From Mesorhizobium carmichaelinearum (GTDB lineage Bacteria > Cyanobacteriota > Cyanobacteriia > PCC-6307 > Cyanobiaceae): 64,000 bases of DNA. Of the stretch, positions 11,643-57,566 are shown in pieces. Under the pieces are notes generated by a model. The model was not told where the DNA came from. It ran no database searches and was given only the letters and a program-made list of their open reading frames with translations. Each line of letters begins with the position of its first letter. Positions within the stretch are counted from its first letter, which is position 1. The translations under genes were made by a program, and so were the position numbers. The DNA lies in contig CALRKZ020000001.1 of the NCBI GenBank assembly GCA_943368365.1, positions 29,128 through 93,127 of the forward strand, given 5' to 3'.

Positions 11643-13123
11643 CAGCGCAGCCGCTCGAGGTCGCGGCGGCGGTCGTTGAGGAAGCCGGTGAACAGGCTCA
11701 GGACGGTGCGCTGGCGGAGCTGGATGTCGGCGGTGAGGGCCATGCCGGGCTTGAGGGGAATCGGCCGGGTGCTGCCCTTGAGGCTCTGGCTCTGGAGCTG
11801 GAGCACGGCCGGGTAGAAGAGACCGGTGGACTCGGTGCGCAGGGTTTCGGCCATCTCCTCGGTGGTGAGCGCATCGGAGCCGATCCGCTCCACGCGGGCC
11901 TTGATGCTGCCGAACTCGCTGGAGGGGAAGGTGTCGATCGAGATCTCGGCCTTCTGGCCGGGCGAGAGGAAGCCGATGGCGTTGTTGGGGATGAACACCT
12001 TGGCCTCGAGGGCATCGCCCGGCACCACGCGCAGCAGGGGCCTGGTGGCCTCCACCACCGAGCCGGGCGACACGTCGATGTCGAACACCGAGCCGGCGCT
12101 CGGGGCGGTGAGCACGCTGTATTGAAGCTGCACCTTGGCCAGGCGGATCTGGCCGTCGAGTTCGGAGATCTGGCGCAGGTTGGCCTCAATGCGGCCGCGC
12201 AGATCGGCTCCGGGAGCCACTTCCGCATTGCGCAGGGAAGCCCGCAGGCCGGCGGCGGTGCGCTCCTCGGTGGCCAGTTCGGCCCGCAGCTGATCGGCGC
12301 GGTTGCGGCTCTCGAGCGCCTGCACCTCGCTCACGGCGCCGGTGCTGGCCAGGCCGGCGTAGCGGGCGGCGATGTTGGTGGCGGTGGCCAGGGTGGTGAT
12401 CAGCCCCTGGATCTTGGCCTCGCTGGCGCGGAGCTGCTCCTCGGCCACCAGGCGCCGGGTGCGCAGATCCTCCGCCTGGTTGCTGAGCTGGAGCTGCTGG
12501 TTGGCGGAGAGGCCGCTGGCCTGGCCATCCCCCAGGGAGGCGGCGAGGATCTGGTTCTCGTTGAGCAGGCGGGCGCGCACGGCCTCGGCGGAGGTGAGGC
12601 GGCTGCGGGCTTCGCGCAGATCGAAGCGCAGCACCACCTGCCCCTGGCGCACCGTTTCGCCATCCTTCACCAGCACGGCCTCGATCACCCCCGGCACCGG
12701 GGCCTGGATCGTTTTCACCTTGCTGCCGGGCTGGAGCTTGCCCTGCACGGCAATCGTTTCACCGAGCGGTGCCACCACGGCCCAGATGCCGAGGGCACCG
12801 AGGCCCCCGAGGGCCGTCCACACGATCAGGCTGGAGGCGCGGCCGCTCTTGCGCAGCATCACCGGCTGGTTGAACTGCCAGTCGGCGGCGGGGGCCAGGG
12901 CACCACCGGGGGCCAAGCCGGTGGTGGCCGGTGCGAGGAAGGGATGCGTGGCGGCCGGATCGGCGGCAGGCGCTTCGGCGCCTTCACCGAGCAGGTCGAC
13001 CCGCACCGGCACCACCCGCTGATCGGGCTGGCGGCGACGGGAGCGGCCGCGGGGCGAACGCAACCAGCCCACGGCCCGCTCGTAGAGGTCGATCAGGAAA
13101 AAGGAAGGATCAGAGTTGGTCAT
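11642..13123 (-). CDS. HlyD-family membrane fusion / secretion protein
   Basis: N-terminal TM segment, a lipoyl-like hairpin (IQAPVPGVIEAVLVKDGETVRQGQVVLRFD), long coiled coils, and a C-terminal beta-barrel region. ATG at 13123 forms an ATGA overlap with the ABC gene stop. Confidence 0.85.
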   Translation of the reverse strand: MTNSDPSFFLIDLYERAVGWLRSPRGRSRRRQPDQRVVPVRVDLLGEGAEAPAADPAATHPFLAPATTGLAPGGALAPAADWQFNQPVMLRKSGRASSLIVWTALGGLGALGIWAVVAPLGETIAVQGKLQPGSKVKTIQAPVPGVIEAVLVKDGETVRQGQVVLRFDLREARSRLTSAEAVRARLLNENQILAASLGDGQASGLSANQQLQLSNQAEDLRTRRLVAEEQLRASEAKIQGLITTLATATNIAARYAGLASTGAVSEVQALESRNRADQLRAELATEERTAAGLRASLRNAEVAPGADLRGRIEANLRQISELDGQIRLAKVQLQYSVLTAPSAGSVFDIDVSPGSVVEATRPLLRVVPGDALEAKVFIPNNAIGFLSPGQKAEISIDTFPSSEFGSIKARVERIGSDALTTEEMAETLRTESTGLFYPAVLQLQSQSLKGSTRPIPLKPGMALTADIQLRQRTVLSLFTGFLNDRRRDLERLR

Positions 13124-16100: not shown

Positions 16101-16128
16101 CGGGCGGGCTGGCGGGGGAGGCGCTCAT
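13120..16128 (-). CDS. ABC exporter with an N-terminal cyclic-nucleotide-binding-like domain and a C39 peptidase-like domain
   Basis: 1002 aa. It has a cNMP-like beta-roll (RAGTLRVLATD...RLEPGACLGWCGLL) and a C39-like block (PIAICMALAAYFGVPLN...GHFAILEGV...LLEPELG). The transmembrane domain has six helices. The NBD has Walker A GGSGSGKST, signature LSGGQRQR and Walker B LLILDEATSALD. Confidence 0.9.
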   Translation of the reverse strand: MSASPASPPDRREQRLLTGFRPFDRLPAAVAAGLEPLLESRRYRLGQTILRPEQPPEGVWLLRAGTLRVLATDPLRGDLATIDRLEPGACLGWCGLLRGSPCEHVRVSAEAEALFLPATLFLDLLPHHDDFRAWFETTLPASELHRLLVELAGGNPAWSNTLRHWPAIRQPARVRSLPPGPATPLGLAPELSWFHSSGGPLGQAWLGDAAPEPPPPGSPWLRLVGLPPLGAIPAPGPEAAPTLQVGDAGLTPLPPARPLPAAPASSGYALSAPEPPPRTEAHRQAELRLQRATGPRDGPIAICMALAAYFGVPLNRDALRDQVQAVLERQASLNLINLGQILDALGLRVVLTKLPADRLARATTPALLQAQGHFAILEGVHDDGRLRLLEPELGPLLLPAEQLGEGGEPVELLLVQRKPDAKESRFSWGWFLPFLREHRRQLVEVLALSFVINLLALATPLGMQVLLDQVVRSRNFNALLSISFVLLLAALAGAVLKTLRSYIFTDTANRVDQATKSTILDQLVRLPQSFFDSRPVGQVMFYFGQLDRLRDFLLGTSLTTVVDLAFSFLYLFILFAISVPLTLATLATLPLMLALTLVSNPLVRSQIQRSMGASVKTHSYLNESITGIQTIKSQNAELKTRWEFQNRYSRFIGEDFKLKITRESITNLAGFINDLSGLVVTGVGVYLLIQNQLTFGAFIAFRILSGYITRPLVQLTTTWQQFQQSTASIQLVADVVDRTTEQSEAEALNIPMPPLIGRVEFQNVSFRFADDGPLILQGVNLEVPAGSFVGMVGGSGSGKSTLLKQLPRFYRPLEGKVLIDGLDINKVELYSLRRQIGVVPQDSVLFDGTVRENLLLVKPDATAEEMIRAARIACAHDFIMDLPKGYNSDVGERGAGLSGGQRQRLALARAVLQNPRLLILDEATSALDARTERQVCINLFEAFRGRTVFFITHRLSTVQPADSIVLMDRGAIMETGTHRELMQRQGWYYALHTSQSQEGGLA

Positions 16129-16913
16129 GCTTGGGCGGCAGGGGGCAGAGGCATCGGCTCCTCGCCGGCCATCAGCAGGCTCACCTGCTCCTTGAACCAG
16201 ATCTGGAAGAGTTCGTCCACCATCCGGGCGCGCATGGCGTCATCGAGTTGAGCAGGGAAACGCTCTTCCAGCCGCACCAACAGCCACAGTCCGCCCAGTT
16301 CGAAGGGCGGCCAGAGCTGGCCGGGGGTGCCCACCCGCAGCCGTTCGGCGAGGGCCGGATGGCCGGCACTGAGGGCGATCGGACCGATCAGGCCGCGGGT
16401 GATCCGTTCCTTGCCCTCGGCGTGCTCCGCCACCAGGGCGGCGAACTCGGCCTCCCCCTCCCGAAGCTGGCAATAGAGCTCCTCGGCCTGGTCGCGGTCG
16501 GAGACGCGCAGCAGGGAATAGGTGACCTGATCGAGATCGAGCTTGCGATCGAGGAAACGGATCTCCGCCTCGTGGGCATAGCGGCTCTGGCTGTAGCGCC
16601 GCAGCCGCTCCGACTTGGTGGCGAAGTAGCGCAGGTCGGCGGCCGACCAGCCCTTGCGGGCGAGCCACTGGGCCATGGCCTCCTTGCTGTCGACGCCCTC
16701 CCCTTCGAGATAGGCGCGCATCAGGGCGTTCTCCTCATCGGCGGTGAGGCTGACGCTGCTCACCACCCGATCGAGCACCACGGCCTGGGCGAGGGCGAGG
16801 GCCACGCCCTGCTGGCGCAGCAGGCGGTTGGTGTCGTGCACCGAGAGCAGGGGCTTGCCCGGGGCGATGGCGATCAGCGCCGGAGGGATCACACCGGAGA
16901 GGGGGGTGCTCAT
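16125..16913 (-). CDS. Parvulin/SurA-like peptidyl-prolyl isomerase family protein
   Basis: The C-terminal half (FAALVAEHAEGKERITRGLIGPI...GQLWPPFELGGLWLLVRLEER) resembles a PpiC-type rotamase. ATGA overlaps at both ends. Confidence 0.6.
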   Translation of the reverse strand: MSTPLSGVIPPALIAIAPGKPLLSVHDTNRLLRQQGVALALAQAVVLDRVVSSVSLTADEENALMRAYLEGEGVDSKEAMAQWLARKGWSAADLRYFATKSERLRRYSQSRYAHEAEIRFLDRKLDLDQVTYSLLRVSDRDQAEELYCQLREGEAEFAALVAEHAEGKERITRGLIGPIALSAGHPALAERLRVGTPGQLWPPFELGGLWLLVRLEERFPAQLDDAMRARMVDELFQIWFKEQVSLLMAGEEPMPLPPAAQA

Positions 16914-19789
16914 CGCCGGCAGGGCAGATCGAGGCGGGCCAGGGCGGTGGCCATCAGCGCGAGGCCGCGTTCACGCGAGAAATGGGCACGGGCATGCTGC
17001 AGGGCCGCATCGCTGGTGCGGCTCCAGAGCTCGTCGTCGGTGAGGAGGGCGGCGGTGGCCTCGCACCAGGCCTGGGGGTGGGGGGCGATGAACACCTCCA
17101 CGCCATGGCGAAGCCCGGTGGCTTCGGCGGCCACCGGGCTGAGCACCTGGGGAACACCGTGGGCCAGGGCGGCGATCACCTTGCCCTTGATGCCCGCCCC
17201 GGCCCGCAGCGGGGCGATGAACACCCGGTGGCGCTCGTAGACCACGGCCGCATCGTCCACCCAGCCATGCACGCGAACGCCCGGAACGGCCTGCCAAGCC
17301 TCGTGCAGCTCGGGGCCCAGGCCGCTGCCGTAGAGGTGGAACTCGAGCTCGGGCAAGCGTTCCCGCAACGTGGGCCACACATCGGCCAGGAACGATTCCA
17401 CGGCGTCCCGGTTGGGAGGGTGCTGATAGCTACCGAGAAAGGTGATGCCGTGGCGGCCGGCGAGCGGGGCGGGCTGGTCGACGGTGTCGACCACCCAGGG
17501 GCAGAGGGCGGTGGCGGCCTGGCCGAGGCTCTCGGCGGCGATCACGGCCTGCTCGATCTCGCTGTAGGTGAGGGTGAGGTCGACCGCGGCGATGGCCTCG
17601 AGCTCCTGGCGGCGGGTTTCGCGCACGGCGGCCAGGGCCTGCTCGGCCAGCTCGCCGCTGAGCCCGGCGCTCTGCAGCTGCCGCAGCTCGCGCAGGTAGT
17701 GGAGATCGGCATTGCAGAAGATCAGCCGGGCCTGGGGCGCGTGCTCGCGCAGCAGGGGCAGGCTGTCGCGCACGGTGGTGTAACGCGTGAGATAGATGAG
17801 ATCAAACTCGGCGCCCCGCTCGCGGAGGAAGCGCTCGAGCGAGAGCACGAAGGGGGCATGCACCGCCTCGATCCCCCGGCGTTGCAGCTCCTCGGTGTAG
17901 GAGCCGAGCCAGGCGAGGTTGGCGGGCAGGAAGGTGATCTTGTAGCCCAGCGACTGGATCAGATCCATCTCCACCAGGGCGGCATGGCTGCCGGCGTCGC
18001 GGTCGGGGCGGGGCGTGCCGTGGTCGAGGAAGAGGGCGCGGCCCAGGATGCCGCGGTCCTTGATGCGCTCGGCGGCCTCGAAACTCGGGTCACGCTCCCC
18101 CTCAAAGGCGTGCTGCCACTTGCGCTGGAACTGGGGGGCGTGCAGGGTCTGGAAGCGCTTGAGCCCTTCGCTGGTGGCGGGATCGGCATCGGTGCCGCAG
18201 CTGAGCCCCTCGTGGTGGATCACCCGCGAGAGCGGGGCATAGCGCACCACCAGGCCGGCTTCTCGCACCTTGAAGGCCAGGTCGGTGTCCTCGTAGTAGG
18301 CCGGCGAGAACTCGGGGCTGAACCCCCCCACCCGGTTCCAGAGCTCGCGGCGGATGGCCAGGGCGGCGCCGCTCACGTAATCCACCTGGCGGGTGTAGGC
18401 CACGCCGGGATGGTGCGGGTTGCGCCCACGGCCGTAGTTCCAGGGTTCGCCGTTGCCCCACACGATGCCGCCGGCCTCCTGGAGCCGCCCATCCGGATAG
18501 ATGAGCTGGGAGCCGGTCATGCCGGTGTCCGGCCAGCGCTCGAAGGGGTGGAGCAGCTCCTCGAGCCAGCGGCAGCAGGGCTCGGTGTCGTTGTTGAGCA
18601 GCACCACAAACGTGCCCCGGGCGGCGGCCACGCCGCTGTGGCAGGCCTGGTTGAAGCCGCGGGCGTAGTCGTGGCGGATCACCGGCACCCCCGGGGCCTC
18701 GCGGGCCAGGGCTTCGGCGGTGCCATCGGAGGAGCCGTCGTCCACCACGATCAGCTCGAAGGGCACGCGGGTGGGGGCGTAGGCCAGGGCCGCCAGGCAG
18801 CGCCGCGTGACGGCGTAGTTGTTGTGCACCGGCACCACCACCGACACGAGCGGCTCGGAGCTGAGGGGCAGCCGGATCGGCTGGCGGGGCACCGGCGTGC
18901 CGTGGGGCCCGGCCTCCTCGCCGGCGCCGGCGCTGGCGGGCGGCTGGATCGGGCCGCTGAGCAGCCGCTGCAGCAGCGGCAGGTCGGGCGGCAGGGGGGT
19001 GCCGTGGCTGTCGGCCCAGTGGAGCCAGGTGGTGAGGCTGCGCAGGTGCTCGCGGGCCAGGGGCTGGAGCTGGTCGGGGAAGGGGGCCTGGCCGTGGGCG
19101 TGCAGGGAAGGCCAGGGGGTGAGCTGGAACGGCGTGAACTCGAGGCTTTCCGCCCGCTGCTGGCCCTCGGCGTCGTGGAGGGCGAAGTGGTGGGGCCGGC
19201 CGTCGCAGCTTTCGGGCGGGAGCGGCCAGTGCAGCTGCCCGTCGGGGCCGGCGCCGAGCCGGCCGATGGGACGGCCATCGAGGCGCAGTTCCAGCTCCTG
19301 GCCGGGAGGCGCCCAGCCGATCACGAAGGGGCCGTGCAGCGCATCGAGCCGCACGCCGCTGCCGCCGGCCCGGCTGCAGAGCTGCTCCAGCAGGCGATAG
19401 CGCTCGTCATCGAGGCGCAAGGGGCTGCCGGGGAGCTCCACCGGGGGATCGGCACGCACGACGGCGCGCACCACCAGGCCCGTGGAGCGGGGCGGCAGGG
19501 CGATGCCGCTGCCGCCGAGGAAGGAGAAGCCGCACACCGGGTTGAGGCCCTGGCGGTCGAGATCGGGCCGGGGCAGGGCGGCGCTCACCTCGCCCAGGGG
19601 CCAGGTGGCCCCCGGGCTGAGCAGGTCTTCCACCTCGAGCAGCACGGTGAGCGGGCCCGACGCGGCCGATCCGGCCAGCGGGGAGGCCCAGCCCTCCAGG
19701 GCGCCCTCGCCGCTGAAGCCCTCGAAGGCCCCGATCAGCGAACCGCGCACGAGGGTCTGCAGGGCCGAAGGCTGGTTGAACGGCACCAC
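16910..19789 (-). CDS. Large bifunctional glycosyltransferase (GT2 domain plus C-terminal GT4/GT-B domain)
   Basis: GT2 core VSVVVPVHNNYAVTRRCLAAL...IVVDDGSSDGT...LLNNDTE. The C-terminal GT-B block is FLGSYQHPPNRDAV...FIAPLRAGAGIKGKVIAALAHGVPQV. The start is uncertain: GTG at 19789/19786 is chosen to avoid overlap with the divergent gene, and the maximal ORF reaches 19909. Confidence 0.8.
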   Translation of the reverse strand: MVPFNQPSALQTLVRGSLIGAFEGFSGEGALEGWASPLAGSAASGPLTVLLEVEDLLSPGATWPLGEVSAALPRPDLDRQGLNPVCGFSFLGGSGIALPPRSTGLVVRAVVRADPPVELPGSPLRLDDERYRLLEQLCSRAGGSGVRLDALHGPFVIGWAPPGQELELRLDGRPIGRLGAGPDGQLHWPLPPESCDGRPHHFALHDAEGQQRAESLEFTPFQLTPWPSLHAHGQAPFPDQLQPLAREHLRSLTTWLHWADSHGTPLPPDLPLLQRLLSGPIQPPASAGAGEEAGPHGTPVPRQPIRLPLSSEPLVSVVVPVHNNYAVTRRCLAALAYAPTRVPFELIVVDDGSSDGTAEALAREAPGVPVIRHDYARGFNQACHSGVAAARGTFVVLLNNDTEPCCRWLEELLHPFERWPDTGMTGSQLIYPDGRLQEAGGIVWGNGEPWNYGRGRNPHHPGVAYTRQVDYVSGAALAIRRELWNRVGGFSPEFSPAYYEDTDLAFKVREAGLVVRYAPLSRVIHHEGLSCGTDADPATSEGLKRFQTLHAPQFQRKWQHAFEGERDPSFEAAERIKDRGILGRALFLDHGTPRPDRDAGSHAALVEMDLIQSLGYKITFLPANLAWLGSYTEELQRRGIEAVHAPFVLSLERFLRERGAEFDLIYLTRYTTVRDSLPLLREHAPQARLIFCNADLHYLRELRQLQSAGLSGELAEQALAAVRETRRQELEAIAAVDLTLTYSEIEQAVIAAESLGQAATALCPWVVDTVDQPAPLAGRHGITFLGSYQHPPNRDAVESFLADVWPTLRERLPELEFHLYGSGLGPELHEAWQAVPGVRVHGWVDDAAVVYERHRVFIAPLRAGAGIKGKVIAALAHGVPQVLSPVAAEATGLRHGVEVFIAPHPQAWCEATAALLTDDELWSRTSDAALQHARAHFSRERGLALMATALARLDLPCRR

Positions 19790-19947
19790 TCCACCGCCAG
19801 GGCGATGCCCCGGAAAATAGGCCAGGTGGCACTGGCACGTCGGTGACAACGCCAGCGGGATGGTCGGCGGAGAATGCGGGCGTCGATCGCGAGGCCGCCG
19901 TGCGCCCACTGGAGCCGCCCCTGGAGGCCACGGAACCCTCGGCCGCG

Positions 19948-47040: not shown

Positions 47041-48122
47041 TGTCCGCCCCCACCCGCCATCTGCTGATCACCGGCGGTGCCGGCTTCATCGCCGGCAACC
47101 TGGTGCACCACTGGGCCGCCACCCACCCCGGCGATCGGATCGTGGTGCTCGATGCCCTCACCTACGCCGGCAACCGGGCCACCATCGCGCCGTTGATCGA
47201 GGCCGGCCGCATCCACTTCGTGCACGGCGACATCGGCGATCGGCCCCTGGTGGATGCCCTGCTGGCCGAGCACGCCATCACCCACGTGGCCCATCTGGCG
47301 GCCGAATCCCACGTGGATCGCTCGATCACCGGCCCCGGCGCCTTCCTCGCCACCAACGTGAACGGCAGCTTCACCCTGCTGGAGGCCTTCCGTGCCCACT
47401 GGCTCGCCGCCGGCTCCCCCGACGCCTGGCGCTTCCTGCACGTGAGCACCGACGAGGTGTTCGGCAGCCTCGAACCGAACGATCCGCCCTTCTGCGAAAC
47501 CACCCCCTACAGCCCCCGCTCCCCCTACGCCGCCAGCAAGGCCTCCAGCGATCACCTGGCCCGCGCCTGGCAGCACACCTACGGCCTGCCGGTGCTGGTG
47601 AGCAACTGCTCCAACAACTACGGGCCCTATCACTTCCCCGAGAAGCTGATCCCGCTCACGCTGATCAACATCCTGCTGGGCCGGCCCATCCCCGTGTACG
47701 GCGACGGCTCCAACGTGCGCGACTGGCTCTACGTGGAGGATCACTGCCGGGCGCTGGAGCGCATCCTGCTGGCCGGCGACGTGGGCCGCACCTACTGCAT
47801 CGGCGGCTGCAACGAGGTGGCCAACCTCGATCTGGTGCACCTGCTCTGCGATCTGATGGACGAACTGGCGCCCGAGCTGCCGGTGCGGCCCAGCCGGGAG
47901 CTGATCCGCTTCGTGGCCGACCGCCCCGGCCACGACCGCCGCTACGCCATCGACGCCGGCCGCATCCGCACCGAACTTGGCTGGGAGCCCCAGGTGACCG
48001 TGCAGGAAGGCCTGCGCCGCACCGTGCAGTGGTATCTCGCCAACCGCGCCTGGTGGGAGCCGCTGCTCTCAGCCGAATACGCCAGCTATCTCGAAACCCA
48101 GTACGCCGCCCGCCTCGCCTGA
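47040..48122 (+). CDS. rfbB: dTDP-glucose 4,6-dehydratase
   Basis: LLITGGAGFIAGN, HVSTDEVFG, PYAASKASSDHL and NCSNNYGPYHFPEKLIP. The start shares one base with the rfbD stop. Confidence 0.93.
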   Translation: MSAPTRHLLITGGAGFIAGNLVHHWAATHPGDRIVVLDALTYAGNRATIAPLIEAGRIHFVHGDIGDRPLVDALLAEHAITHVAHLAAESHVDRSITGPGAFLATNVNGSFTLLEAFRAHWLAAGSPDAWRFLHVSTDEVFGSLEPNDPPFCETTPYSPRSPYAASKASSDHLARAWQHTYGLPVLVSNCSNNYGPYHFPEKLIPLTLINILLGRPIPVYGDGSNVRDWLYVEDHCRALERILLAGDVGRTYCIGGCNEVANLDLVHLLCDLMDELAPELPVRPSRELIRFVADRPGHDRRYAIDAGRIRTELGWEPQVTVQEGLRRTVQWYLANRAWWEPLLSAEYASYLETQYAARLA

Positions 48123-48123
48123 G

Positions 48124-48693
48124 ATGCAGATCGTTCCCCAGTCCATTCCCGAGGTGCTGCTGCTGCAGCCGAAGGTGTTCGGCGACGCCCGCGGCTTCTT
48201 CGTGGAAACCGCGCGCCAGAGCGTGCTGGAGGAGGCCGGTATCCCGCCGCTGGTGCAGCACAACCAGAGCCGCTCCGGCCAGGGGGTGCTGCGCGGCCTC
48301 CACTACCAGCTGGTGCAGCCCCAGGGCAAACTGGTGCGCTGCTCCAGGGGCAGCGTCTTCGATGTGGCCGTGGATGTGCGCCGCGGCTCAGCCACGTTCG
48401 GCCAGTGGGTGGGCGCCATCCTCGATGACGTGAACCACCACCAGCTCTGGGTGCCACCGGGCTTTGCCCACGGCTTCCTGGTGCTCTCGGAAACGGCCGA
48501 CTTCTGCTACCTCTGCTCGAACTACTACCACCCCCCCTCCGAGCAGGGGATCGCCTGGGATGATCCCGAGCTGGGGATCCAGTGGCCCCCCCTGCCGGAG
48601 GGGGTGACGCCCCAGCTCTCCACCAAGGACCTGGCCAACCCCACCCTTGCCAACCAGGAACCTCAGCGGCTGCCGACCATCTCAGCCTCCTGA
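48124..48693 (+). CDS. rfbC: dTDP-4-dehydrorhamnose 3,5-epimerase
   Basis: VFGDARGFFVE, VLRGLHYQ, KLVRCSRGSVFDVAVDVRRGSATFGQW and PPGFAHGF. Confidence 0.93.
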   Translation: MQIVPQSIPEVLLLQPKVFGDARGFFVETARQSVLEEAGIPPLVQHNQSRSGQGVLRGLHYQLVQPQGKLVRCSRGSVFDVAVDVRRGSATFGQWVGAILDDVNHHQLWVPPGFAHGFLVLSETADFCYLCSNYYHPPSEQGIAWDDPELGIQWPPLPEGVTPQLSTKDLANPTLANQEPQRLPTISAS

Positions 48694-49625
48694 ACGGCCG
48701 CCCTGCGCATGAGCGCTTCGAGGGCCGTGCGCAGGGGAGAAGGCAGCTGGCGACGGAATTTGATCCTCGGCAGCGCCATCTCGGCCATCACCGGCTCGCT
48801 GCCGTATAGCTGGAGATAATCGGCATGGTTGTCCCATACCTGCCTGGGCACGTTGTCGACGAACGATTCAACCGGCAGCCCCTCAGCCCAAAGGATCGTG
48901 TGGGAGTTCAGTTCGATGTTGTAGTAAACCAGGCACGGTTGATCGATCCACTCTTCGAGTTTGGTGTAGGTGATCGTGCGTCCATTCACCAGCGCCGAGG
49001 CCTGCACCAGATGCCCCTCGAACAGCACGGCATGGTCGGGGCTGAGCATCAGATCACGTTCGGGCAAACGCTGGCCAAGGGCACCGGCCGTGATCCGGAT
49101 CGGCAGCCCACCAGACCAGCTCAGCGGCATGGGGTGGTGCCGGGTGATTGACACGAACCGCACGCTCTCGATCCCATTGGCCGTGATCACCCGTTCACCA
49201 GGCTTGAGGGATTCGATCGGGCGTGGCCCTTCAGGGGTGGCGATCAGAGTTCCCGCCAGCATGCAGATGGTGAGATCTTGCTCCAGGAGTCGGCCTAAAA
49301 CAGTATCTTTCTTAAACTCTGTATTGCTAGCAAGAAAGAACTTATCATCTATCTCAAGAACAATCGCACCACTAGAAGGGAAGAATCCCACATATTCCAG
49401 TTTCGATTTGTCATCGAGATCAAATGGCAAGTCATCATCATCATTCAACTTCGGAAGTGAAATCCTAACATCTTCATCGACTGTAAATATTTTGTCTTCT
49501 CCCTTTTTCCTTTCCGTAATACGAACTGATTCGGATTTTGTAATGTCTTGACTGGCGACTTGGTAAACCTCTGATTTGGGATCATACTTCAACAGATAGA
49601 AATAGTCGTAAGTAGCGGTGGCCAT
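48663..49625 (-). CDS. Hint_2 / bacterial intein-like domain protein, copy A (intact)
   Basis: A 120 aa AT-rich N-terminal module comes first. It is followed by CMLAGTLIATPEGPRPIESLKPGERV..., AGALGQRLPERDLMLSPDHAVLF and HTILWAEGLPVESF. The 3' end overlaps rfbC by 31 nt. Confidence 0.8.
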   Translation of the reverse strand: MATATYDYFYLLKYDPKSEVYQVASQDITKSESVRITERKKGEDKIFTVDEDVRISLPKLNDDDDLPFDLDDKSKLEYVGFFPSSGAIVLEIDDKFFLASNTEFKKDTVLGRLLEQDLTICMLAGTLIATPEGPRPIESLKPGERVITANGIESVRFVSITRHHPMPLSWSGGLPIRITAGALGQRLPERDLMLSPDHAVLFEGHLVQASALVNGRTITYTKLEEWIDQPCLVYYNIELNSHTILWAEGLPVESFVDNVPRQVWDNHADYLQLYGSEPVMAEMALPRIKFRRQLPSPLRTALEALMRRAAVQEAEMVGSR

Positions 49626-49760
49626 GGCCTAGGTCGACTCGAGAGGAGTGCAACCTTTCTAAACAAGGTGAAGAGCGGCGCACCTAGGGATAAGGATGAG
49701 ATCCCTGAGCAGGTCATAGGAATCACTCGTTTACACCATAAGCAAGTTTTCACGATATTA

Positions 49761-49800
49761 AAAGACACAAGAAAGCCCAGACCCTCGTAAAGAGTCTGGG
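49761..49800 (-). terminator. Rho-independent terminator-like hairpin after Hint copy B
   Basis: The minus strand reads cccagac-tctttacgagg-gtctggg followed by ctttcttgtgtctttt. It lies 30 nt downstream of the stop at 49830. Confidence 0.45.
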
Positions 49801-49829
49801 AGTTCAATCGGAGCAAGGTGATCACTTCA

Positions 49830-50746
49830 TCACCTGAGCGCCAGCTCACGCTCACGGCTGGTCTGCTGAGGGATCTGAAGAACCAGCCGAAGAGCGGCAG
49901 GCAACTGCCGGCTGAACTTGATGCGAGGGAGGGCAAGATCCTGGATCGGTAGATGAGCACCGCAAAGGGAAAGATACTCCTCGTAGTTGTCCCAAGTGGA
50001 TCGGGGCACATTGTCGGCAAACGTCTCAACCTCAAGCCCCTCGGCCTTGATGATGGAATGCGCCTCCAACTCGATGTTGTAATTCACGATCCTCTGATCC
50101 TTGGGCTACTCTTCGAGCTGAGATCGCTGGATGGTGGATCCGTTGATCAGCGTAGAAGCATGGACGAGATGACCATCGATCACGATGGCATGGTCACCGG
50201 AAACGAGGAGATCGCGCTCAGGCCCAGCGGCGCCCAGGGCACCACCGAAATCCGAACGGGCAGGCGATCCCCCAGGGCCAGCATGAAGGGGAGGTGAACG
50301 GTCTGGCTGACGAAGTGCACCGGCAGGGCCCCGGCCTGGGTGATCACTAGATCCCCCACAGCCAGAGTTTCGTCGGGCCGTGAGCCCTCGGGAGTGGCAA
50401 TCCGTGTGCCAGCAAGGAAACAAACTTCGATATGAGTTCTGCTGGTTGTTCCCGATAGGTCATTTTGGAGAGTTGTATCATCGGATAGCAGGTAGTAGGT
50501 GCCAGGAGGACACTCAACAACAATCCCTTGAGCACTGGCACCGTCATACTGAATGGCGCCGGAAAGTTGCCCGGTTACCGTAAGAGACTCTCCTGGAGTT
50601 GCTATTTCGGGAGAGCTGACATCCCCCGATTCGATGATGGTGGTAGGTTTGTCGCGATTAGCCCTGTCAAAGACCTGCCAAGTGTTAGTAGAGGTGTTGC
50701 AAGTTATATCGTTAGTTCCGCCGTAGGCATCCGAAAGGGCGGCCAT
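49830..50746 (-). pseudogene. Hint_2 domain gene, copy B (one frameshift, one in-frame TAG)
   Basis: The N-terminal module plus EVCFLAGTRIATPEG is in one frame. GALGAAGPERDLLVSGDHAIVIDGHLVHAS is in another, with the shift near 50247..50251. TAG at 50106..50108 sits where copy D has Trp. Downstream comes NYNIELEAHSIIKAEGLEVETF. Confidence 0.75.
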
Positions 50747-51027
50747 GAGAAGGATGGGCGCTTGTGGATGAGGAAGCATGAGGAAATTATAAGTAATGAT
50801 TGAGCAATCACTCGAAAACCGAATTCGGGGCTAGCTGAATCGAGAAAGATGACAAAATGCCGACGCTAAAATCCGTTCTCTCAGCTCTTTTGTTCATGAG
50901 GATGAAAGCAAGTTGACTGGAAAGCAGGCGTCGCCAAACTTCCCTGCGACTGCAAGGCGAGGTCAGCTGGGTCTCTGCACCCAGCAAGGAAAACCTCACC
51001 TTGTGGCTGGCCTGCCTCACTCATCCA

Positions 51028-51164
51028 CCTCCCGATGCCGCCTCTCACCCTCTGTGTGCTTCCGGGGCTCGAGGAGCAGCCTGGCGGCATCACGGCATTG
51101 CTGCGGCTGAACCTGCCCCTGCTGCTCACCGGGGAGTGAGTTGTGGGCCCGGAACTGGCGGCGG
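51028..51164 (+). repeat. Duplicated 5' fragment of the gene at 55557
   Basis: atgccgcctctcaccctctgtgtgcttccggggctcgaggagcag... aligns to 55551..55686. I count about 11 mismatches by hand. It contains a premature TGA. Confidence 0.85.
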
Positions 51165-51256
51165 GGGTGACGCCCCCGCTCTCCGCCAAAGACCTGGCCA
51201 ATCCCACCCTCGCCAACCAGTAGCCTCAACGGCTGCCCACCATGTCCGCCTCCTGA
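51165..51256 (+). repeat. Duplicated 3' fragment of rfbC
   Basis: ggggtgacgcccccgctctccgccaaagacctggccaatcccaccctcgccaaccag... aligns to 48601..48693, including the TGA. It contains an in-frame TAG. Confidence 0.85.
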
Positions 51257-52186
51257 ACGGCCGCCCCTCGCACAAGCGATTCGAGGGCCGTGCGCAGGGC
51301 AGAAGGCAACTGACAACGGAACTTGATCCTCGGCAGCGCCATCTCGGCCATCACGGTCTCGCTGCCATAGAGCTGGAGATACTCCGCATGGTTGTCCCAC
51401 ACCTGCCTCGTCACGTTGTCGACGAACGATTCAATGGGCAGACCCTCGGCACAGAGGATCCCGTGGGAGTTCAGTTCGATGTTGTAGTAAACCAGGCAGG
51501 TTTGATCGATCCACTCCTCGAGTTCGGTAGAGATGATCGTGCGTCCATTCACCAGCGCCGAAGCCGGCACAAGATACCCCTTGAACAGCACGGCATGGTC
51601 GGGGCTGAGCAGCAGATCCCGTTCGGGCAACCTCTGGCCAAGGGCACCGGCCATATCCGGATGGGCAGCCCGTTCGACCAGCTCAGCGGCAAGGGATGAT
51701 GCCGCGTGATCGACACGAACCTCACGCTCTCGATCCCGTTGGCCGTGATCACCCGGTCACCAGGCTTGAGTGATTCGATCGGGCGGGGGCCTTCCGGGGT
51801 GGCGATTCGGGTTCCCGTCAGCAGGCAGATGGTGAGGTTCTCTTGCTTGGGGCTGCCGAGATTGGTGCCCTGACTGTAGTGAGTGTTGTTGGCGAGATAG
51901 AAATTCCCACCCCTCTTCAGAACGATCGCTCCTGTAGCCGAATAAAACCCTTCATACACATAGTTGGTCTTGCCGTCGAGGTCACTGGGCAATCCATCAC
52001 CACACTCCGGCCTTGAATCAACCCTGACATGCTCATCAGCCGGATACCTGACAAATGTTTTGTCATTGGTCGACTCTGTGATCAGAACCGAATCGGACTT
52101 GGACTCATTTTGACTATCAACCTGATAGGATCCAGGATTACGCTCATCCTTCAGGCGATAAAAAAGGCGTAGGTGGCGTCAGACAT
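51226..52186 (-). pseudogene. Hint_2 domain gene, copy C (two frameshifts)
   Basis: The start reads MSDATYAFF, then the frame is lost at a six-base homopolymer run (52160..52165). Restoring one base gives FYRLKDERNPGSYQVDSQ..., parallel to copy A. A second shift lies near 51650. The Hint part is ICLLTGTRIATPEGPRPIESLKPGDRV...HGILCAEGLPIESF. Confidence 0.75.
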
Positions 52187-52380
52187 AGCGGAAGCCTGTG
52201 AACAGGAGTTATATTCACTTTAACCAGCACTCGTCCCGCTTGAGCCATGAGAATCCAAACGAGTCACTGAATCTCTGCCGATAGGTGGCTGAGCCTGCAA
52301 GAGAGATTCGCTGGAAGTGCCTAAGGCTCACCACCACGCCCCTTCGCAAGGAAGATGTCGCTTCGGAGACTCAGGGCCTC

Positions 52381-52417
52381 ACAACACAAAAGCCTTGCCC
52401 CATGAATGGGACAAGGC
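52381..52417 (-). terminator. Rho-independent terminator-like hairpin after Hint copy D
   Basis: The minus strand reads gccttgtccc-attcat-ggggcaaggc (one mismatch) followed by ttttgtgttgt. It lies 43 nt downstream of the stop at 52460. Confidence 0.5.
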
Positions 52418-52459
52418 CATGGAAGAAAGTGAGTTGGTTGCCTGAGCGGCACTCAGATG

Positions 52460-53380
52460 TCAGACAGTTGCCAATTCACGCTGGACAGCGGACTGATCCA
52501 TCGATTGGAGCTTAAGTCGGAGCGGGGCGGGAATCTGACGGGAGAACTTGATCCGGGGCAGAGGCAGTTCACGGATTGGCGCCTCACTTCCATAGAGCGC
52601 CAGATACTCTTCGTAGTTGTCCCAGGTTTTCCGGGGCACGTTGTCGACATACGACTCCACCTCGAGACCTTCGGCGCGAATGATGGCGTGCTCCTCAAGC
52701 TCCACGTTGTAGTAGGTGATGGAGGGGGTGTCTTGCCAATCTTCTGCTGAGGTGCGAACGATGGTCGTGCCGTTGATCAGCGCTGAAGCGTGGATGAGAT
52801 GACCATCCACCACGATGGCGTGATCGCCGGTAACGAACAGGTCACGCTCGGGGCCCGCCTGCCCGAAAGCACCAGCGCTGATGCGAATCGGGAGAGCGCC
52901 CGAGAGGCTCAGCACCAAGGGATGACTCACGGTTTGCGAGATGAATCGTACGGGCCGGAGGCCGTCCAAGCATCGAATCATCTGACCAGGCTGGAGGGCC
53001 TCAACCTCGATGGGACCCTCAACGGTACCGATCAACGTGCCAGCAAGGAAGCAAACAAATGTGCCTTGGCTAGCATTGGTGCTGAAGTTGACCTCAGTCC
53101 CTGCGGGAATGGCAGTATTTGAAGCTACATAGAAAGTAGATCCGGATTGAAAAATGAGAGCATTACCACTACTTTTTCCGAGATAGATCACTGAGACTGC
53201 CGTGCCTCCGTTGATGCTAAGCGTCACAGCCTCGCCCGGGGCCAGCGATGAATTGGAGCTGGTTGTCTCGGTGACAACAGCATTGCCACCACCGGACAGA
53301 TCGGGGCCACTTGTTGTCGTCTTGGTGCTAGTACCAGGAGCCGAAGAAAGATAGATGTTATTGAACCCGAAAGAAGCCAT
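52460..53380 (-). CDS. Hint_2 / bacterial intein-like domain protein, copy D (intact)
   Basis: A 109 aa Ser/Thr/Gly-rich N-terminal module comes first. It is followed by CFLAGTLIGTVEGPIEVEALQPGQMI, AGAFGQAGPERDLFVTGDHAIVV and HAIIRAEGLEVESY. Confidence 0.8.
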   Translation of the reverse strand: MASFGFNNIYLSSAPGTSTKTTTSGPDLSGGGNAVVTETTSSNSSLAPGEAVTLSINGGTAVSVIYLGKSSGNALIFQSGSTFYVASNTAIPAGTEVNFSTNASQGTFVCFLAGTLIGTVEGPIEVEALQPGQMIRCLDGLRPVRFISQTVSHPLVLSLSGALPIRISAGAFGQAGPERDLFVTGDHAIVVDGHLIHASALINGTTIVRTSAEDWQDTPSITYYNVELEEHAIIRAEGLEVESYVDNVPRKTWDNYEEYLALYGSEAPIRELPLPRIKFSRQIPAPLRLKLQSMDQSAVQRELATV

Positions 53381-54014
53381 GAGAAACGAAAAAACGGTTG
53401 CCGTTGGACCCGGGGAAGACAGGCCTACACGACAGAATACTGACGAATCCTAAGGGGATTTCAAGGATCAGGACAGGCGGGCCTGGTGTTGTCTGCTACC
53501 AAAGGTCGTGGTTTTCTTGATTTGCAGACCTTCTCAAGCAAGAGGACAGCGGGATGACCCAGGAATCCTTCCCTTGATCCCGTGACGCGCTCCGTTCCGC
53601 TGCAGGCAGCCGCCGTCACGGATGGGCCGGCCATCGACTGCTTGGTCGCCTGGGCAACTTCCCCGGCACCTCCAATTCCAGGCTCCGGAACTGGACCCCA
53701 TCAAGGCTGTCCAACCCTTGTGGACAACAGTGGGTGAGGCGATCGAAATCAGCTCCAGCGATGCGCTTGGGCTGGGGCATCGCCGCATGGTGGTGATGTG
53801 GCACGGGTCGCCGCCTCGGATTAGTCGCTGGGCATCGCTCTCAAGTCCCGGTGGGCAGCAGCTTGGCCACCTGGGCACTCACGCCAGCCGCTCATCGAGA
53901 CTGAACAGCTTGAAGCACACCAGACAGGGTTGGGGCAGACCTGCGGCCTTGAGATCGTGGAGGGGCCAATCGAGGAACCAGGAGGATGGCGCGCTGAGGT
54001 GATCTCGAAGTCGC

Positions 54015-54239
54015 TCACAGATCGCGGAACGCCGACTCATCCACCGGGCTGCTCCACTCGCTCAGGCCGCTCTCCAGCCCATGGAGATAGGCCAGATCCA
54101 ACGGCGTCTCCGCCCGCACTCGCTCCGAGCCGTCCTCCAGCTCCCAGCTGAGCTGGTCGCCCTGCATCAATCCCAGGGCCTCACGCACGGCCTTCGGCAC
54201 CGTGACCTGCCCCTTGGCAGTGAGTGTGGCGACGTCCAT
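54015..54239 (-). CDS. AbrB/MazE/SpoVT-family antitoxin-like DNA-binding protein
   Basis: MDVATLTAKGQVTVPKAVREALGLMQGDQLSWEL is the swapped-hairpin beta-barrel motif (kGQvTiPk.iR..lgl..Gd.l). Confidence 0.7.
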   Translation of the reverse strand: MDVATLTAKGQVTVPKAVREALGLMQGDQLSWELEDGSERVRAETPLDLAYLHGLESGLSEWSSPVDESAFRDL

Positions 54240-54334
54240 CCGTGGCCAACCCATCCGATCGCCACCCTAGAGCCAAGGCCGCCTTGCTTTAGGGCGTCCT
54301 TACGCGCTTGCCCCCCGCCGTTTCCACCCAGCTG

Positions 54335-54464
54335 GGCACCACCGTGTCGGAGCTGGAGGATCGGCTTCGCATCCTCGATGCCCTCGACATCCCCACCCGC
54401 CACCCGGATAGCTCTTCGCCAAGCCCGTGCGCTCGTCGACGCAATCCGTGATGCGCTGGCCTGA
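54335..54464 (+). pseudogene. HEPN-domain C-terminal remnant (frameshifted)
   Basis: LEDRLRILDALDIPTRHPD is in one frame and ALRQARALVDAIRDALA in the next. Together they resemble the RYPD...A..l...v end of HEPN toxins. No N-terminal part is present. Confidence 0.35.
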
Positions 54465-54798
54465 TCCCGTCGAAGTGATGCTCCAGCTCGACGCCTGGGT
54501 GGGGGAGCAGGCGACCCGTGTGCCGTCCCTGGAGCAAGTGGCCATCTTCGGCAGTGATGGCCGGGGCACCGCTGGAGTCGGCAGCGACCTCAACCTCCTG
54601 CTGATCGATGCACAAGCCAACGGACCCCAGCACATGAGACAGGTGAGCTGGCCTCTGGAGCGGCTGCCCCTCAGTGGCGACGCGCTCGTGCTCAAACCCG
54701 ACGGGTACGAGGCCCTGATGACGGGCGGATCACGGTTCGCCGCGGAGCTGCAGCGTGATTCCCGCTGGCTGTGGTCACGCCCCAGCTCCGTCCCCTAG
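54451..54798 (+). CDS. Nucleotidyltransferase-domain (MNT-type) protein
   Basis: VAIFGSDGRGTAGVGSDLNLLLI matches the GS..RG.....SD.DLL pattern of minimal nucleotidyltransferases. Confidence 0.6.
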   Translation: MRWPDPVEVMLQLDAWVGEQATRVPSLEQVAIFGSDGRGTAGVGSDLNLLLIDAQANGPQHMRQVSWPLERLPLSGDALVLKPDGYEALMTGGSRFAAELQRDSRWLWSRPSSVP

Positions 54799-55433
54799 AC
54801 CTGCCAGATTTCCCTCAGGCGGAGAACCAGCCCGGGGAACAGGGGCCCCGCCTCCAGCTCGGATGGGGCCTCCAGGCGTTGGGGGGTGCCGCTAGGGCTG
54901 CCGCCAGCGGGCCAGATCTCCACAGCCTGCTGTTCGGGGATCAACAGCCAGCCCAGTTGGACCCCATTGGCCTGGTAGGGGCCATCTTGCGGCGCAGGGC
55001 GGAGAGGCCGCGGGGGCCTTCGTCGCCGGCACTGGCCAGCTCCACCACCAGATCGGGGCAGAGCGGGGGAAAGCCGCGCCGCTGCTCGGCAGTGAGCGCC
55101 TGCCAGCGCTTCTGGCTCACCAGCGCGGTATCGAGGCTCAACACCGAACCATCGGGCAGGCGGAAGCCCGTGGAGCTGTCGAACAGCTGGTAGGGGAAGC
55201 CCGCTGGAGCGCACCGCGATCCAGAGCAGGGCGCCGAGGGTCTGGTTCCTGGCGCCGGTTTCACCACCGGTGGGCGTGATGTGGATGAGATGACCATCGG
55301 CGGAGAGTTCGAGCACCGCCTCGGGGTTCGCAGTGCACACCGCCGCGAATTGCTCGGTGCTGAGCCGCAGATCAGCGGGCAGGTGCAGAGGCGCCAGAGC
55401 ATCGGCCCGGGTGGCTGGAGATGCAGGCGCCAT
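54795..55433 (-). pseudogene. Uma2-family (DUF820) endonuclease, two frameshifts
   Basis: Three frame pieces read consecutively: LSTEQFAAVCTANPEAVLELSADGHLIHITPTGGETGARN, then YQLFDSSTGFRLPDGSVLSLDTALVSQKRW...PDLVVELAS, then ANGVQLGWLLIPEQQAVEIW. Confidence 0.75.
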
Positions 55434-55556
55434 GGCCCCAGCGAGCTTGGTTTTCAGGCTAGACGGCTTCCTGGTGCCCGCAGAACCGGCAGTCATCACG
55501 TGGCGAGTGCCTGGAAGGCAGCTACCACTACGGTCACCGTCGCCCGCAGCTCCTCC

Positions 55557-56717
55557 ATGCCCGCCCTCACCCTCTGTGTGCTTCCGGGGCTCGAGGAGCA
55601 GCCGGGCGGCATCCCGGACTTGCTGCGGCTGAACCTGCCCCTGCTGCTCTTCGGGGAGTGGGTGGTGGGCCCGGAACTGGCGGCGGCGCTCGTGCCCGAA
55701 CTGCGCACCACCGACGCCGACCGCCCCCGCCTCGACGACCTGCTGCGTCAGGCCACGGTGCGCACCAGCAGCGCCGCCCTCGTGCTGCTCAGCGGCGCCG
55801 TCGCACCCACGGCGGCCTGGGCCGACGGGGTGGGCGAACTGGCCCTGCGCGATCCGCCCGTGCTCGCCTGGGGCCGCGCCTGGAGCCGCAGCGGGCCCGA
55901 GGCCGGGCTCCGGCTGGATCCACCCGCCGAGCCCAGCTGGATCCTGCTGCCCCGTGGCGCCTGGACGCCGCCGCCCGCCCTGGCCGATGCCCTCGCTGCC
56001 GATCCGCCCGCCGCCCTCCCCTGGCTGCTGGAACTCGCCGCTGAACGCGGCTGGCCCGCGCTCGACGCCACCGAGGCGGTCCCGCTGGATCGGCGCGGGC
56101 CCCACCCCATCGCCACACCGCAGCCCGCTCCGGCGCCGGCGGGGCCGCAGGCCGGGATCCAGCGGTTGCCCATCACCCCGGCCGACGCGCCCCGCCTCAC
56201 CCTGCTGCTCCAGGGCTCCGGCGCCGATCAGCGGCGCTGGCGCGACGCGCTGGAGGGGTCCTCCGAGCTGGGCATCGAGCTGCTCCCCACCGAGGCGGGC
56301 GACTGGAGCCAGGCCAGGGGGGAGTGGATCGGCTGCCTGCCGGCGGCCGCCGACCCGCCACCCCTGGCGCTGCTCTCCGCCCTGGTGCGGACCTTCCGAA
56401 ATCCCTGGATCGATGGGGTGGTGCCGCAGGACTGGCCACCGGTGCTCCGCCGCGGCGTGCTGGAGCGGCTTGGCCCCGCCGCCTTCGAGGAGCCGGCGGC
56501 CCGGGCCGCCGGCCTGCAGCTGCTCCAGCTGCCGCTGCTGGCGGCCAGCCCCCCGGAGGAACCCGATCCCCTCTGGCAGGCGGCCGCCCTCCAGCTGGAG
56601 CGGGCCGAAGCCCTGCTGCTCGCCCAGCAGCGCCGCATCGCCCAGCTGGAAGCCCAGCTGGGCCAGTCGCGCCAGGGGCTCACACCACCGGAAACTTCCA
56701 GGCCAGCAGCCAGCTGA
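55557..56717 (+). CDS. Hypothetical Pro/Ala-rich protein (source gene of the 51028..51164 fragment)
   Basis: ATG at 55557 lies inside ORF 55281..56717. The duplicated copy begins at the same ATG, which supports this start. C-terminal coiled-coil-like LQLERAEALLLAQQRRIAQLEAQL. Confidence 0.5.
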   Translation: MPALTLCVLPGLEEQPGGIPDLLRLNLPLLLFGEWVVGPELAAALVPELRTTDADRPRLDDLLRQATVRTSSAALVLLSGAVAPTAAWADGVGELALRDPPVLAWGRAWSRSGPEAGLRLDPPAEPSWILLPRGAWTPPPALADALAADPPAALPWLLELAAERGWPALDATEAVPLDRRGPHPIATPQPAPAPAGPQAGIQRLPITPADAPRLTLLLQGSGADQRRWRDALEGSSELGIELLPTEAGDWSQARGEWIGCLPAAADPPPLALLSALVRTFRNPWIDGVVPQDWPPVLRRGVLERLGPAAFEEPAARAAGLQLLQLPLLAASPPEEPDPLWQAAALQLERAEALLLAQQRRIAQLEAQLGQSRQGLTPPETSRPAAS

Positions 56718-56913
56718 GCAGGCCCGCCACCAGCAGCTGCCCCAGCACGAACGGCCCCAGATTGGCCGCAGTGAGGATCGGCGGCGCAAAGAGGCTCACG
56801 GCCCAGGAGATCGCCACGAGCCCCGCCAGCGGGATCCCGAAGAACACCAGCAGCAGCAGGGCCGTGGAGCGCAGCCGGCCCAGCAGGGCGGCCCGGCCCG
56901 GTTCAGGGGCCAT
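56680..56913 (-). CDS. Small membrane protein (putative)
   Basis: Two hydrophobic helices (ALLLLVFFGIPLAGLVAISWAV and LGPFVLGQLLVAGLLSWLLAW). Weak call in GC-rich DNA. Confidence 0.3.
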   Translation of the reverse strand: MAPEPGRAALLGRLRSTALLLLVFFGIPLAGLVAISWAVSLFAPPILTAANLGPFVLGQLLVAGLLSWLLAWKFPVV

Positions 56914-57169
56914 CGGAACCGCTCTCCCGCCGGCTGCGGCCGACGCTCCAGCCCACCACATAACCCACCAGGCCGCCGGCAAGGGCCCCCTGCAGCTGCC
57001 AGATCTCCTTGCGGAACCGCCAGGGCATGGCCCCCAGCTGCAGCCCCACCACCACCGCCAGCGTCAGCCCCACCGCCAGCCCGCCGCCGCCGAGGAACCC
57101 CAGCGCGCCGCCCCGGGCGGGCGCGGTGGAGCCCCCGGGCGCGCGCGGCGGACTGGTCAGCTTCGACAC
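56903..57169 (-). CDS. Small glycine-zipper membrane protein (putative)
   Basis: GALGFLGGGGLAVGLTLAVVVGL and GALAGGLVGYVVGW segments. GTG start. Weak call. Confidence 0.3.
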   Translation of the reverse strand: MSKLTSPPRAPGGSTAPARGGALGFLGGGGLAVGLTLAVVVGLQLGAMPWRFRKEIWQLQGALAGGLVGYVVGWSVGRSRRESGSDGP

Positions 57170-57176
57170 GCCGAAC

Positions 57177-57566
57177 CTACGGATCGGCGCATTCTGGCGG
57201 GAATGCCGCGATCCGCTCCTCCACCAGGGTCTGCAGGGCTGCCAGGGCCCTCAGCAGCTCCGCACGGCTGGTGGCCAGCGGAAATGGCCCGGCTTCGTAG
57301 CGCGCCTCCACCGCGTAGGTCTGCAGCGCCAGCAGGGAGGTCTCGAGTGGCACCTCCGCCAACCGGGCCAGGACCCGCAGATCGTGGCTGAGGGGCGGCC
57401 GGCGGTCGTCGAGCACGATCAGTGCCTTGAGCAGCTTCTCCACGGCCTGCTGGGCGGCGAAACCCCATTCCTCGTCGGGATAGGCCGGATCCAGATTGAG
57501 TTCCAGCCCCCGCCGATGCCGCGCCACGATCTGGAGCAGCAAGGCCGCATCCTCACTCGGCGACAT
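57177..57566 (-). CDS. HEPN-domain protein (toxin-type)
   Basis: AAQQAVEKLLKALIV...HDL..L....., then YAVEARYEAGPFP, which contains the R-x4-6-H-like HEPN region. It lies directly downstream of, and overlaps, an MNT gene. Confidence 0.7.
   Translation of the reverse strand: MSPSEDAALLLQIVARHRRGLELNLDPAYPDEEWGFAAQQAVEKLLKALIVLDDRRPPLSHDLRVLARLAEVPLETSLLALQTYAVEARYEAGPFPLATSRAELLRALAALQTLVEERIAAFPPECADP

Follow-up and report, generated by a model that had tools for sequence, protein, structure and literature searches.

The DNA analysed here is a stretch of 64,000 nucleotides (the window) from contig CALRKZ020000001.1 of assembly GCA_943368365.1, the host being a Cyanobium-like cyanobacterium (assembly 99.97% complete, 0.36% contamination). 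The element under study is a slot that lies between rfbC and a gene without a Pfam family, termed gene X, and that holds genes for proteins with a Hint_2 domain. This rfbC-to-gene X slot is doubled, head-to-tail, and a single illegitimate, in-frame joint lies between the two units. We propose, at about even confidence, that the resident copy of the slot was joined by a second, diverged allelic copy through homology-facilitated illegitimate recombination (HFIR) or a similar route. We infer that one of the units is foreign, and likewise its route of entry, from the pattern of divergence between the units, and which of the two is the newcomer cannot be told.

The doubled slot and its seam

Repeat matches were obtained by self-blastn over positions 47500-57500, which identified three direct matches. 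The first (48592-49274 against 51155-51836; 88.3% identity, 683 nt, one 1-nt gap, E = 0) represents the left young block, of which copy 1 is composed of the rfbC tail together with the Hint domain and C-terminal tail of Hint gene A. The second (51028-51164 against 55552-55686; 90.5% identity, 137 nt, E = 5e-49) represents the right young block, of which copy 2 is the 5' end of gene X, and the third (49885-50228 against 52515-52858; 69.6% identity, 345 nt, E = 2e-35) lies within the Hint genes B and D. The three matches are collinear, pairing A with C, B with D, and a fragment of gene X with gene X itself. Unit 1 spans 48592-51164 (2573 nt) and unit 2 spans 51165-55686 (4522 nt), each with two Hint_2 genes, of which A and D are intact and B and C are broken. 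The repeated sequences are confined to this locus and occur at no other site in the 3.05-Mb genome.

The left flank of the slot is the intact rfbC gene (dTDP-4-dehydrorhamnose 3,5-epimerase; 48124..48693, forward strand; PF00908, E = 2.4e-67), the final gene of rfbA-D-B-C, which is syntenic with that of relatives and shares its final 31 nt with the 3' end of Hint A on the opposite strand. The right flank is gene X (55557..56717, forward strand, 386 aa), which is a real gene despite its lack of a Pfam family and was recognised by its homologues and synteny; its eleven homologues, of which the best display 58-61% identity, all fall within the Cyanobium / Synechococcus 5.2 clade.

Dead copies of both flanking genes meet at the seam. 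The first of these (51028..51164, forward strand) contains the first 130 nt of gene X and approximately 7 nt upstream, has its ATG at 51035 and a TGA at 51137-51139, and differs from gene X by 11 substitutions (3/2/6 at the first, second and third codon positions); it translates as MPPLTLCVLPGLEEQPGGITALLRLNLPLLLTGE followed by a stop, where gene X reads MPALTLCVLPGLEEQPGGIPDLLRLNLPLLLFGEW, and the similarity between the two starts some 5-7 nt 5' of the ATG. The second (51165..51256, forward strand) contains the last 92 nt of rfbC with a TAG at 51221-51223, and likewise carries 11 substitutions relative to its parent (codon positions 2/1/8). A three-way alignment placed the novel junction of the gene X 5' end with the rfbC 3' end at 51155..51166, with the crossover within the GG at 51163-51164. 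The joint is gapless and reads CTGGCGGCGG followed directly by GGGTGACG, gene X contributing CTGGCGGCGG and rfbC reading (CTGCCGGAGG)GGGTGACG at this point. The exact microhomology is thus limited to the 2-nt GG, with an imperfect extension that matches at 8/10 positions, in a G-rich stretch. The fusion joins codons 1-44 of gene X in frame to approximately the last 30 codons of rfbC in a chimeric open reading frame (ORF) of some 74 codons (51035-51256, forward strand), which is now interrupted by the above-mentioned TGA and TAG; its in-frame state is probably meaningless, being expected by chance in one case out of three. When the substitutions were polarised by outgroups, the fragments were derived at A3P, F32T, W35* and a Q-to-P change and the functional rfbC at one (A to T), sites that are too few to separate the models discussed below.

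The phylogeny of the Hint domains (30 domains) follows the same pairing. A and C are sisters with full support (100/100) and branches of 0.035 and 0.13, respectively, and B and D group together with moderate support (90/80), on long branches of 0.53 and 0.40.

These data agree in most structural respects with an earlier note on this DNA, which had described the interval that runs from the rfbC 3' end to the gene X 5' end as present twice, head-to-tail, with one novel junction. The self-comparison that it had proposed yielded direct, collinear matches with the Hint gene matches in line with those of the fragments, and placed the limits of unit 1 (to 51164) and unit 2 (from 51165 to approximately 55686) where the note had them. 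Its coordinates for, and description of, the gene X copy including the ATG that runs into the rfbC copy were correct, and the position of the breakpoint in a short G-rich stretch was borne out by the GG crossover and the 8/10 flanking match. The tree and the collinear matches similarly uphold its division of the Hint genes into two types (A/C and B/D). Its view that a unit with two Hint genes predates the junction is reasonable from the tree and holds under both of the main models considered here. Its mention of 2.2 kb of extra DNA in unit 2 was accurate as to presence, though this DNA is merely part of a non-homologous interior.

Two divergence strata and a clock from dead fragments

The two units are not uniformly diverged. 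Between A and C, identity stays at 85-93% from the stop codon as far back as the LTIC codons, among them that of the Hint nucleophile Cys, and falls to 53-62% within a few bases 5' of these codons. The A/C Hint block displays a synonymous divergence (dS) of 0.32 and a non-synonymous divergence (dN) of 0.069 (omega 0.215). The A/C N-terminal domains are 56% identical at the nucleotide level, with a proportion of synonymous differences (pS) of 0.80 and a dN of 0.45. For the B/D pair, dS reaches 1.6-2.1 and dN 0.30-0.79, and neither the spacers nor the 2.2-kb stretch of unit 2 can be aligned between the units. The doubled slot consequently has young ends, which are the rfbC tail with the A/C Hint block and the head of gene X (88-90% identical), and an old, synonymously saturated interior that extends from the Hint Cys codon to the ATG of gene X, with sharp boundaries between them. 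Copies that arise from one duplication should share one age, yet here the ends are young and the interior is saturated, and the structure is therefore not a simple duplication.

The head of gene X and the tail of rfbC at the seam have been nonfunctional since the joint formed, and they can therefore serve to time neutral change. The comparison excluded the 31 nt shared with Hint C and covered approximately 190 fragment sites. The fragments differ from their parents at 8/129 first and second positions (6.2%) and at 10/63 third positions (15.9%), which is indistinguishable from the functional A/C pair (6.9% and 20.8%, respectively), the bias towards third positions included. Under the null model of duplication in place, the units are identical when the joint forms and the time elapsed is read from the A/C synonymous divergence, which corresponds to approximately 0.16 neutral substitutions per site in each fragment. 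This model expects 19-22 changes at first and second positions compared to the 8 observed, a deficit of about 2.5-fold (posterior-predictive P = 0.002-0.009). In a likelihood fit, 21% of the divergence falling after the joint was preferred over 100% (2dlnL = 12.3). The best fit is thus one in which the added DNA would already have diverged from the resident at the time of joining, with approximately 79% of the divergence accumulated earlier. Polarised A/C changes number 8 derived in C and 3 derived in A, and C lacks some near-invariant residues; this excess of change on the C branch (0.13 compared to 0.035 for A) is consistent with the same short time since the joint.

The two strata and the overly similar dead fragments run counter to the history that the earlier note had assumed, in which one resident segment was copied in place and then diverged. 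The note had also taken the junction as a source of relative timing, and this stands insofar as the two-gene unit is older than the joint; the strata and the dead-fragment clock indicate, however, that neither the B/D split nor the split of the A/C N-terminal domains is dated by it.

The slot in relatives

Comparison with related genomes, along the lines that the earlier note had advised, revealed that the adjacency of rfbC and gene X is ancestral. By synteny and homology, rfbC and gene X are the conserved flanks of an ancestral cargo slot, with a convergently oriented Hint gene as a recurrent occupant. Other genomes have 0, 1 or 2 Hint genes in this slot, or other cargo: Synechococcus sp. CBW1107 has two small membrane ORFs only, GCA_943369655 and G194 each have one convergent Hint_2 gene, GCA_046498125 has a DUF6165 gene, G024 has TPR, GNAT and insertion sequence (IS) debris, and G072 has two Hint_2 genes. 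The junction itself was not found among 41 relatives.

Alignment of the slots of G194 and GCA_943369655 (78% identity overall) showed that rfbC, the Hint domain and the tail align, that the Hint N-terminal domain is only about 50% identical from the Cys codon upstream, and that similarity returns (88%) near gene X. The same mosaic is thus seen between these two lineages, and unit 1 and unit 2 therefore resemble the alleles of two lineages. Alignability between G194 and GCA_943369655 is lost exactly 5' of the Hint Cys codon, which points to exchange of Hint N-terminal modules at that boundary across lineages.

A parallel was identified in G072, which belongs to another genus and whose orthologous locus (G072:C32:9000-28900, 7517-19897) is likewise doubled head-to-tail. 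It contains, in this order, an intact rfbC, two Hint genes, a gene of 371 aa, fragments of the right-flank genes (Exo_endo_phos, 106-aa ORF), approximately 2 kb of HepT and gmd debris, a second rfbC, a partial copy of the 371-aa gene and an intact right flank. The second rfbC (15346-15881) is frameshifted, nearly full-length and 81% identical to the resident copy at the nucleotide level. It is separated from the resident by a dS of 0.75 (omega 0.185), and orthologues of other species are nearer (dS 0.46-0.54); in a tree it falls outside the clade, with 95% support, that unites the resident copy with its congeners. Together these results are suggestive of a foreign origin for this second rfbC. 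The G072 locus also contains a three-copy repeat of approximately 125 nt derived from the 3' end of Exo_endo_phos. The possibility that the dehydratase fragments at this locus are a relic of rfbB was rejected, as no tblastn match to the RfbB of the present genome was obtained at E < 1e-5 and the fragments resemble gmd debris.

A pair of small membrane ORFs (77 aa and approximately 80 aa) lies between rfbC/Hint and gene X in CBW1107, J7-Johnson and GCA_943369655, and 3' of gene X in the present genome (56683-57058, reverse strand) and in G024. The pair is upstream of gene X in some genomes and downstream in others, and the order of gene X and the pair has therefore been swapped between clades. 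As the pair is found 3' of gene X here, the suggestion that the 2.2-kb DNA of unit 2 represents this conserved pair was rejected.

Proposed addition of a diverged allele and its alternatives

In the proposed history, the two slot copies would never have been identical, the newcomer having come from a related lineage at a synonymous distance of approximately 0.25. One end of the incoming DNA would have been anchored by homology in the rfbC/Hint block or in gene X, and the other end joined illegitimately at the microhomology. Either HFIR or single-crossover integration of a circularised allelic fragment could serve as the route, as both would give the same product. Later pruning would have inactivated one gene of each type (B and C) as well as the chimeric gene X/rfbC fusion, leaving a new pair of A and D. 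The rfbC-Hint block (683 nt, 88%) and gene X (~90%) are both possible homologous anchors, and the crossover point is not visible in one genome. ComEC (E = 1.8e-52) and two DprA genes are intact in the genome, which is permissive only, since these families are also present in non-transformable control genomes.

HFIR has been described in natural transformation (de Vries & Wackernagel 2002; Prudhomme et al. 2002; Meier & Wackernagel 2003, as cited in PMC6382021), and its joints at GC-rich microhomologies of 3-10 bp have been shown experimentally (PMC6382021). The present locus resembles these events in that homology would have anchored one side, while the other appears to be joined at a short microhomology rich in GC, and in that foreign DNA appears to have been added, with truncated copies of the flanking genes left at the seam and units that had apparently diverged before joining. 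It differs in that the added DNA would here be an allele of the same slot, so that the outcome mimics a tandem duplication, and in its host, as the experiments described in PMC6382021 concern Acinetobacter, Streptococcus and Pseudomonas and not picocyanobacteria.

Several observations weigh against addition of a diverged allele. The exact microhomology is 2 nt (8/10 imperfect) compared to the 3-10 bp of the experimental joints, and the joint is read from one genome assembly, from sequence alone. No donor or sister lineage was found among 5.8 billion proteins, the best matches being 58% for gene X and 55% for Hint A, and the 29-mer that spans the junction is absent from the Joint Genome Institute (JGI) metagenomes; as no close donor was found, the foreign origin is deduced solely from statistics within the genome, on some 190 fragment sites. 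The clock is calibrated by a borrowed rate, the A/C synonymous distance, and when it is calibrated on the third positions of the fragments themselves the deficit is not significant (an estimated ~12 changes expected compared to 8 observed). A recent in-place duplication, with a foreign allele later imported over most of unit 2, is only weakly disfavoured. Finally, with respect to the parallel in G072, the approximately unbiased (AU) test does not reject monophyly of the two rfbC copies (p = 0.167).

The best surviving alternative, which we regard as possible but doubtful, is the tandem duplication in place that the earlier note had proposed, in which an illegitimate exchange between sister chromosomes joined codon 44 of gene X to the rfbC tail and doubled a resident unit with two Hint genes; a diverged allele would afterwards have replaced the interior of one unit by homologous recombination. 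This replacement would span the region from the Hint Cys codon to the ATG of gene X and would also have introduced or deleted the 2.2 kb. Bacteria frequently undergo tandem duplication at sites of short or absent homology, and RecA-independent join-point duplications at microhomology are known from the genetics of Salmonella and E. coli. The topology, the collinearity and the single joint are exactly as expected for such an event. In its favour are also the pairing of A with C and of B with D in the tree and the codon positions of the fragment substitutions, which taken alone do not reject it. The similarity to the RecA-independent duplications extends to the head-to-tail units, the one novel join point and the short, G-rich microhomology, but those duplications start identical and are soon lost, whereas the present units display two-layered divergence and join-point fragments that are too young for the A/C clock. 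This alternative requires at least two events and an indel where one event would suffice, and it leaves the ~2.5-fold shortfall in first and second position divergence under the A/C clock. Furthermore, the differences between fragments and parents begin 13 nt from the joint, where a later homologous replacement could not have brought them in, and identical copies, which are unstable, would have had to survive until they reached approximately 10% divergence.

A duplication dating back to the B/D split, in which gene conversion from the functional copies of rfbC, Hint A and gene X has maintained the similarity of the ends, would account for an old interior with young ends, and is considered improbable. 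It calls for two independent conversion tracts of coincidentally equal identity (88% and 90%), one of them on a dead fragment of 137 nt located 4.5 kb from its parent, and conversion would have removed the stop codons that the fragments carry. Moreover, the rfbC fragment directly adjoins the A/C block (dS 0.32), such that the clock problem persists, and divergence is largely uniform across the young blocks, with no converted sub-tracts.

An assembly or library artefact, in the form of a chimeric join of two strain variants or a chimeric read, is given very little credence. The units do resemble two strain alleles, and there is a single assembly of this genome in the databases. Gene X and rfbC share just 2 nt (8/10) at the joint, however, so that a k-mer or de Bruijn graph cannot link them, and the copies are diverged by 10-12%, at which level collapse or expansion of repeats is not an issue. 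Each of the two fragments carries stop codons and substitutions of its own, as expected of real DNA that is decaying. The completeness and contamination values of the genome given above also argue against an artefact, as do the location of the joint deep within a 383-kb contig and the parallel structure in G072.

A site-specific mobile element (integron, integrase island or transposon) was rejected, as no integrase or transposase Pfam domain was found in the ORFs in or near the repeat, nor any tRNA, Rfam match, terminal repeats or meaningful inverted repeats.

The Hint_2 genes

All four Hint_2 genes are located on the reverse strand. Hint A (48663..49625; PF13403, E = 3.2e-32) is intact and encodes 320 aa, which comprise an N-terminal domain rich in AT (39% GC), a Hint_2 domain beginning at LTIC and a tail of ~60 aa. 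Hint D (52460..53380; PF13403, E = 2.8e-28) is likewise intact and encodes 306 aa. Hint B (49830..50779) is a pseudogene by three-frame translation, with a frameshift near 50244-50246 and a TGG-to-TAG change at 50106-50108, its Hint_2 matches being divided over two frames with one TAG. Hint C (51226..52186) is a pseudogene with at least two frameshifts, one near 52160-52178, just past the start MSDATYAFF, and the other a 1-nt deletion near 51652-51654 in the Hint domain. Positions 1-145 of the PF13403 profile are accordingly matched in one piece by A and D, and in two by B and C. For the purpose of annotation, the two Hint pseudogenes and the two gene fragments at this locus should not be called genes.

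The sequences assign the four genes to the bacterial intein-like (BIL) branch of the Hint superfamily (PMC5874633), whose BIL / Hint_2 domain proteins were described by Amitai et al. 2003 and Dassa et al. 2004, as cited in PMC5874633. They share with these proteins the Pfam Hint_2 match, the first Cys, which is present in all four (LTIC / VCFLAGT), and the retained DH motif. Similarly, their N-terminal parts are variable, as in the BIL proteins of hypervariable secreted proteins described in PMC5874633. They differ in that the proteins here are short (~300-320 aa) and end in a conserved tail of ~60 aa. Their expected chemistry would be autoprocessing that frees the N-terminal part. The GC content of the N-terminal domain is 39% in Hint A (49275-49625) and 50% in Hint C (51837-52186), compared to ~68-70% for the genome, and these cargo domains may be compositionally foreign or under unusual constraint.

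In both the Cyanobium clade and Alphaproteobacteria, Hint_2 proteins of approximately 300 aa are common. In the database, the two closest relatives of Hint A (51% and 43% identity) share one 1768-nt contig of a Prochlorococcaceae metagenome-assembled genome (MAG), and tandem Hint_2 pairs therefore exist elsewhere. The fifth Hint_2 gene of the present genome, outside the window (G000:C17:38098-40207), lies in an open frame of 995 aa, of which the part 5' of the Hint domain consists of tandem repeats of ~170 nt with 78-84% identity.

Other features of the units

In unit 1, the spacer 5' of Hint B (50780..51027; 50% GC) has no counterpart in unit 2 by self-blastn, and in unit 2 the DNA at 53381..55551 (66% GC) similarly has none in unit 1. 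The latter contains a MazE/AbrB-like gene (54015-54254, reverse strand), a weak MNT-like ORF (54427-54798, forward strand) and a Uma2 nuclease-like gene (54941-55402, reverse strand), as indicated by Pfam and by weak PADLOC matches. Outside the window, a further direct repeat of 261 nt (87.7% identity), whose copies are separated by 7.3 kb on one contig, was observed at G000:C1:110474-110734 and 117809-118069.

Implications for the slot and its hosts

Under the favoured reading, the locus is a clear natural case of a recombination process that is already known, and it does not define a new system. Its points of interest are the quantitative case for a heterologous origin, the reciprocal pruning to A and D, and the independent parallel in G072. 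It constitutes a record of a hypervariable slot changing its content without mobile-element machinery, beside cell-envelope sugar genes: the seam dates the joining, the dead fragments provide a neutral clock, and the intact and broken Hint genes indicate what was kept. More tentatively, the doubling of the slot may be an intermediate of an add-then-prune exchange of hypervariable Hint/BIL cargo beside the rfb cell-surface cluster in picocyanobacteria. In such an exchange, a whole-slot allele would be stacked via one homologous flank and redundant genes would then decay, leaving here a combination in which A and D stem from different lineages, and the same process would have acted independently at the same slot in the genus of G072. 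If the added copy is indeed heterologous, the locus would provide genomic evidence of illegitimate gene acquisition with one-sided homology in the Cyanobium clade, in which transformation is, to our knowledge, hardly documented, and it would imply that an apparent tandem duplication can be two stacked alleles.

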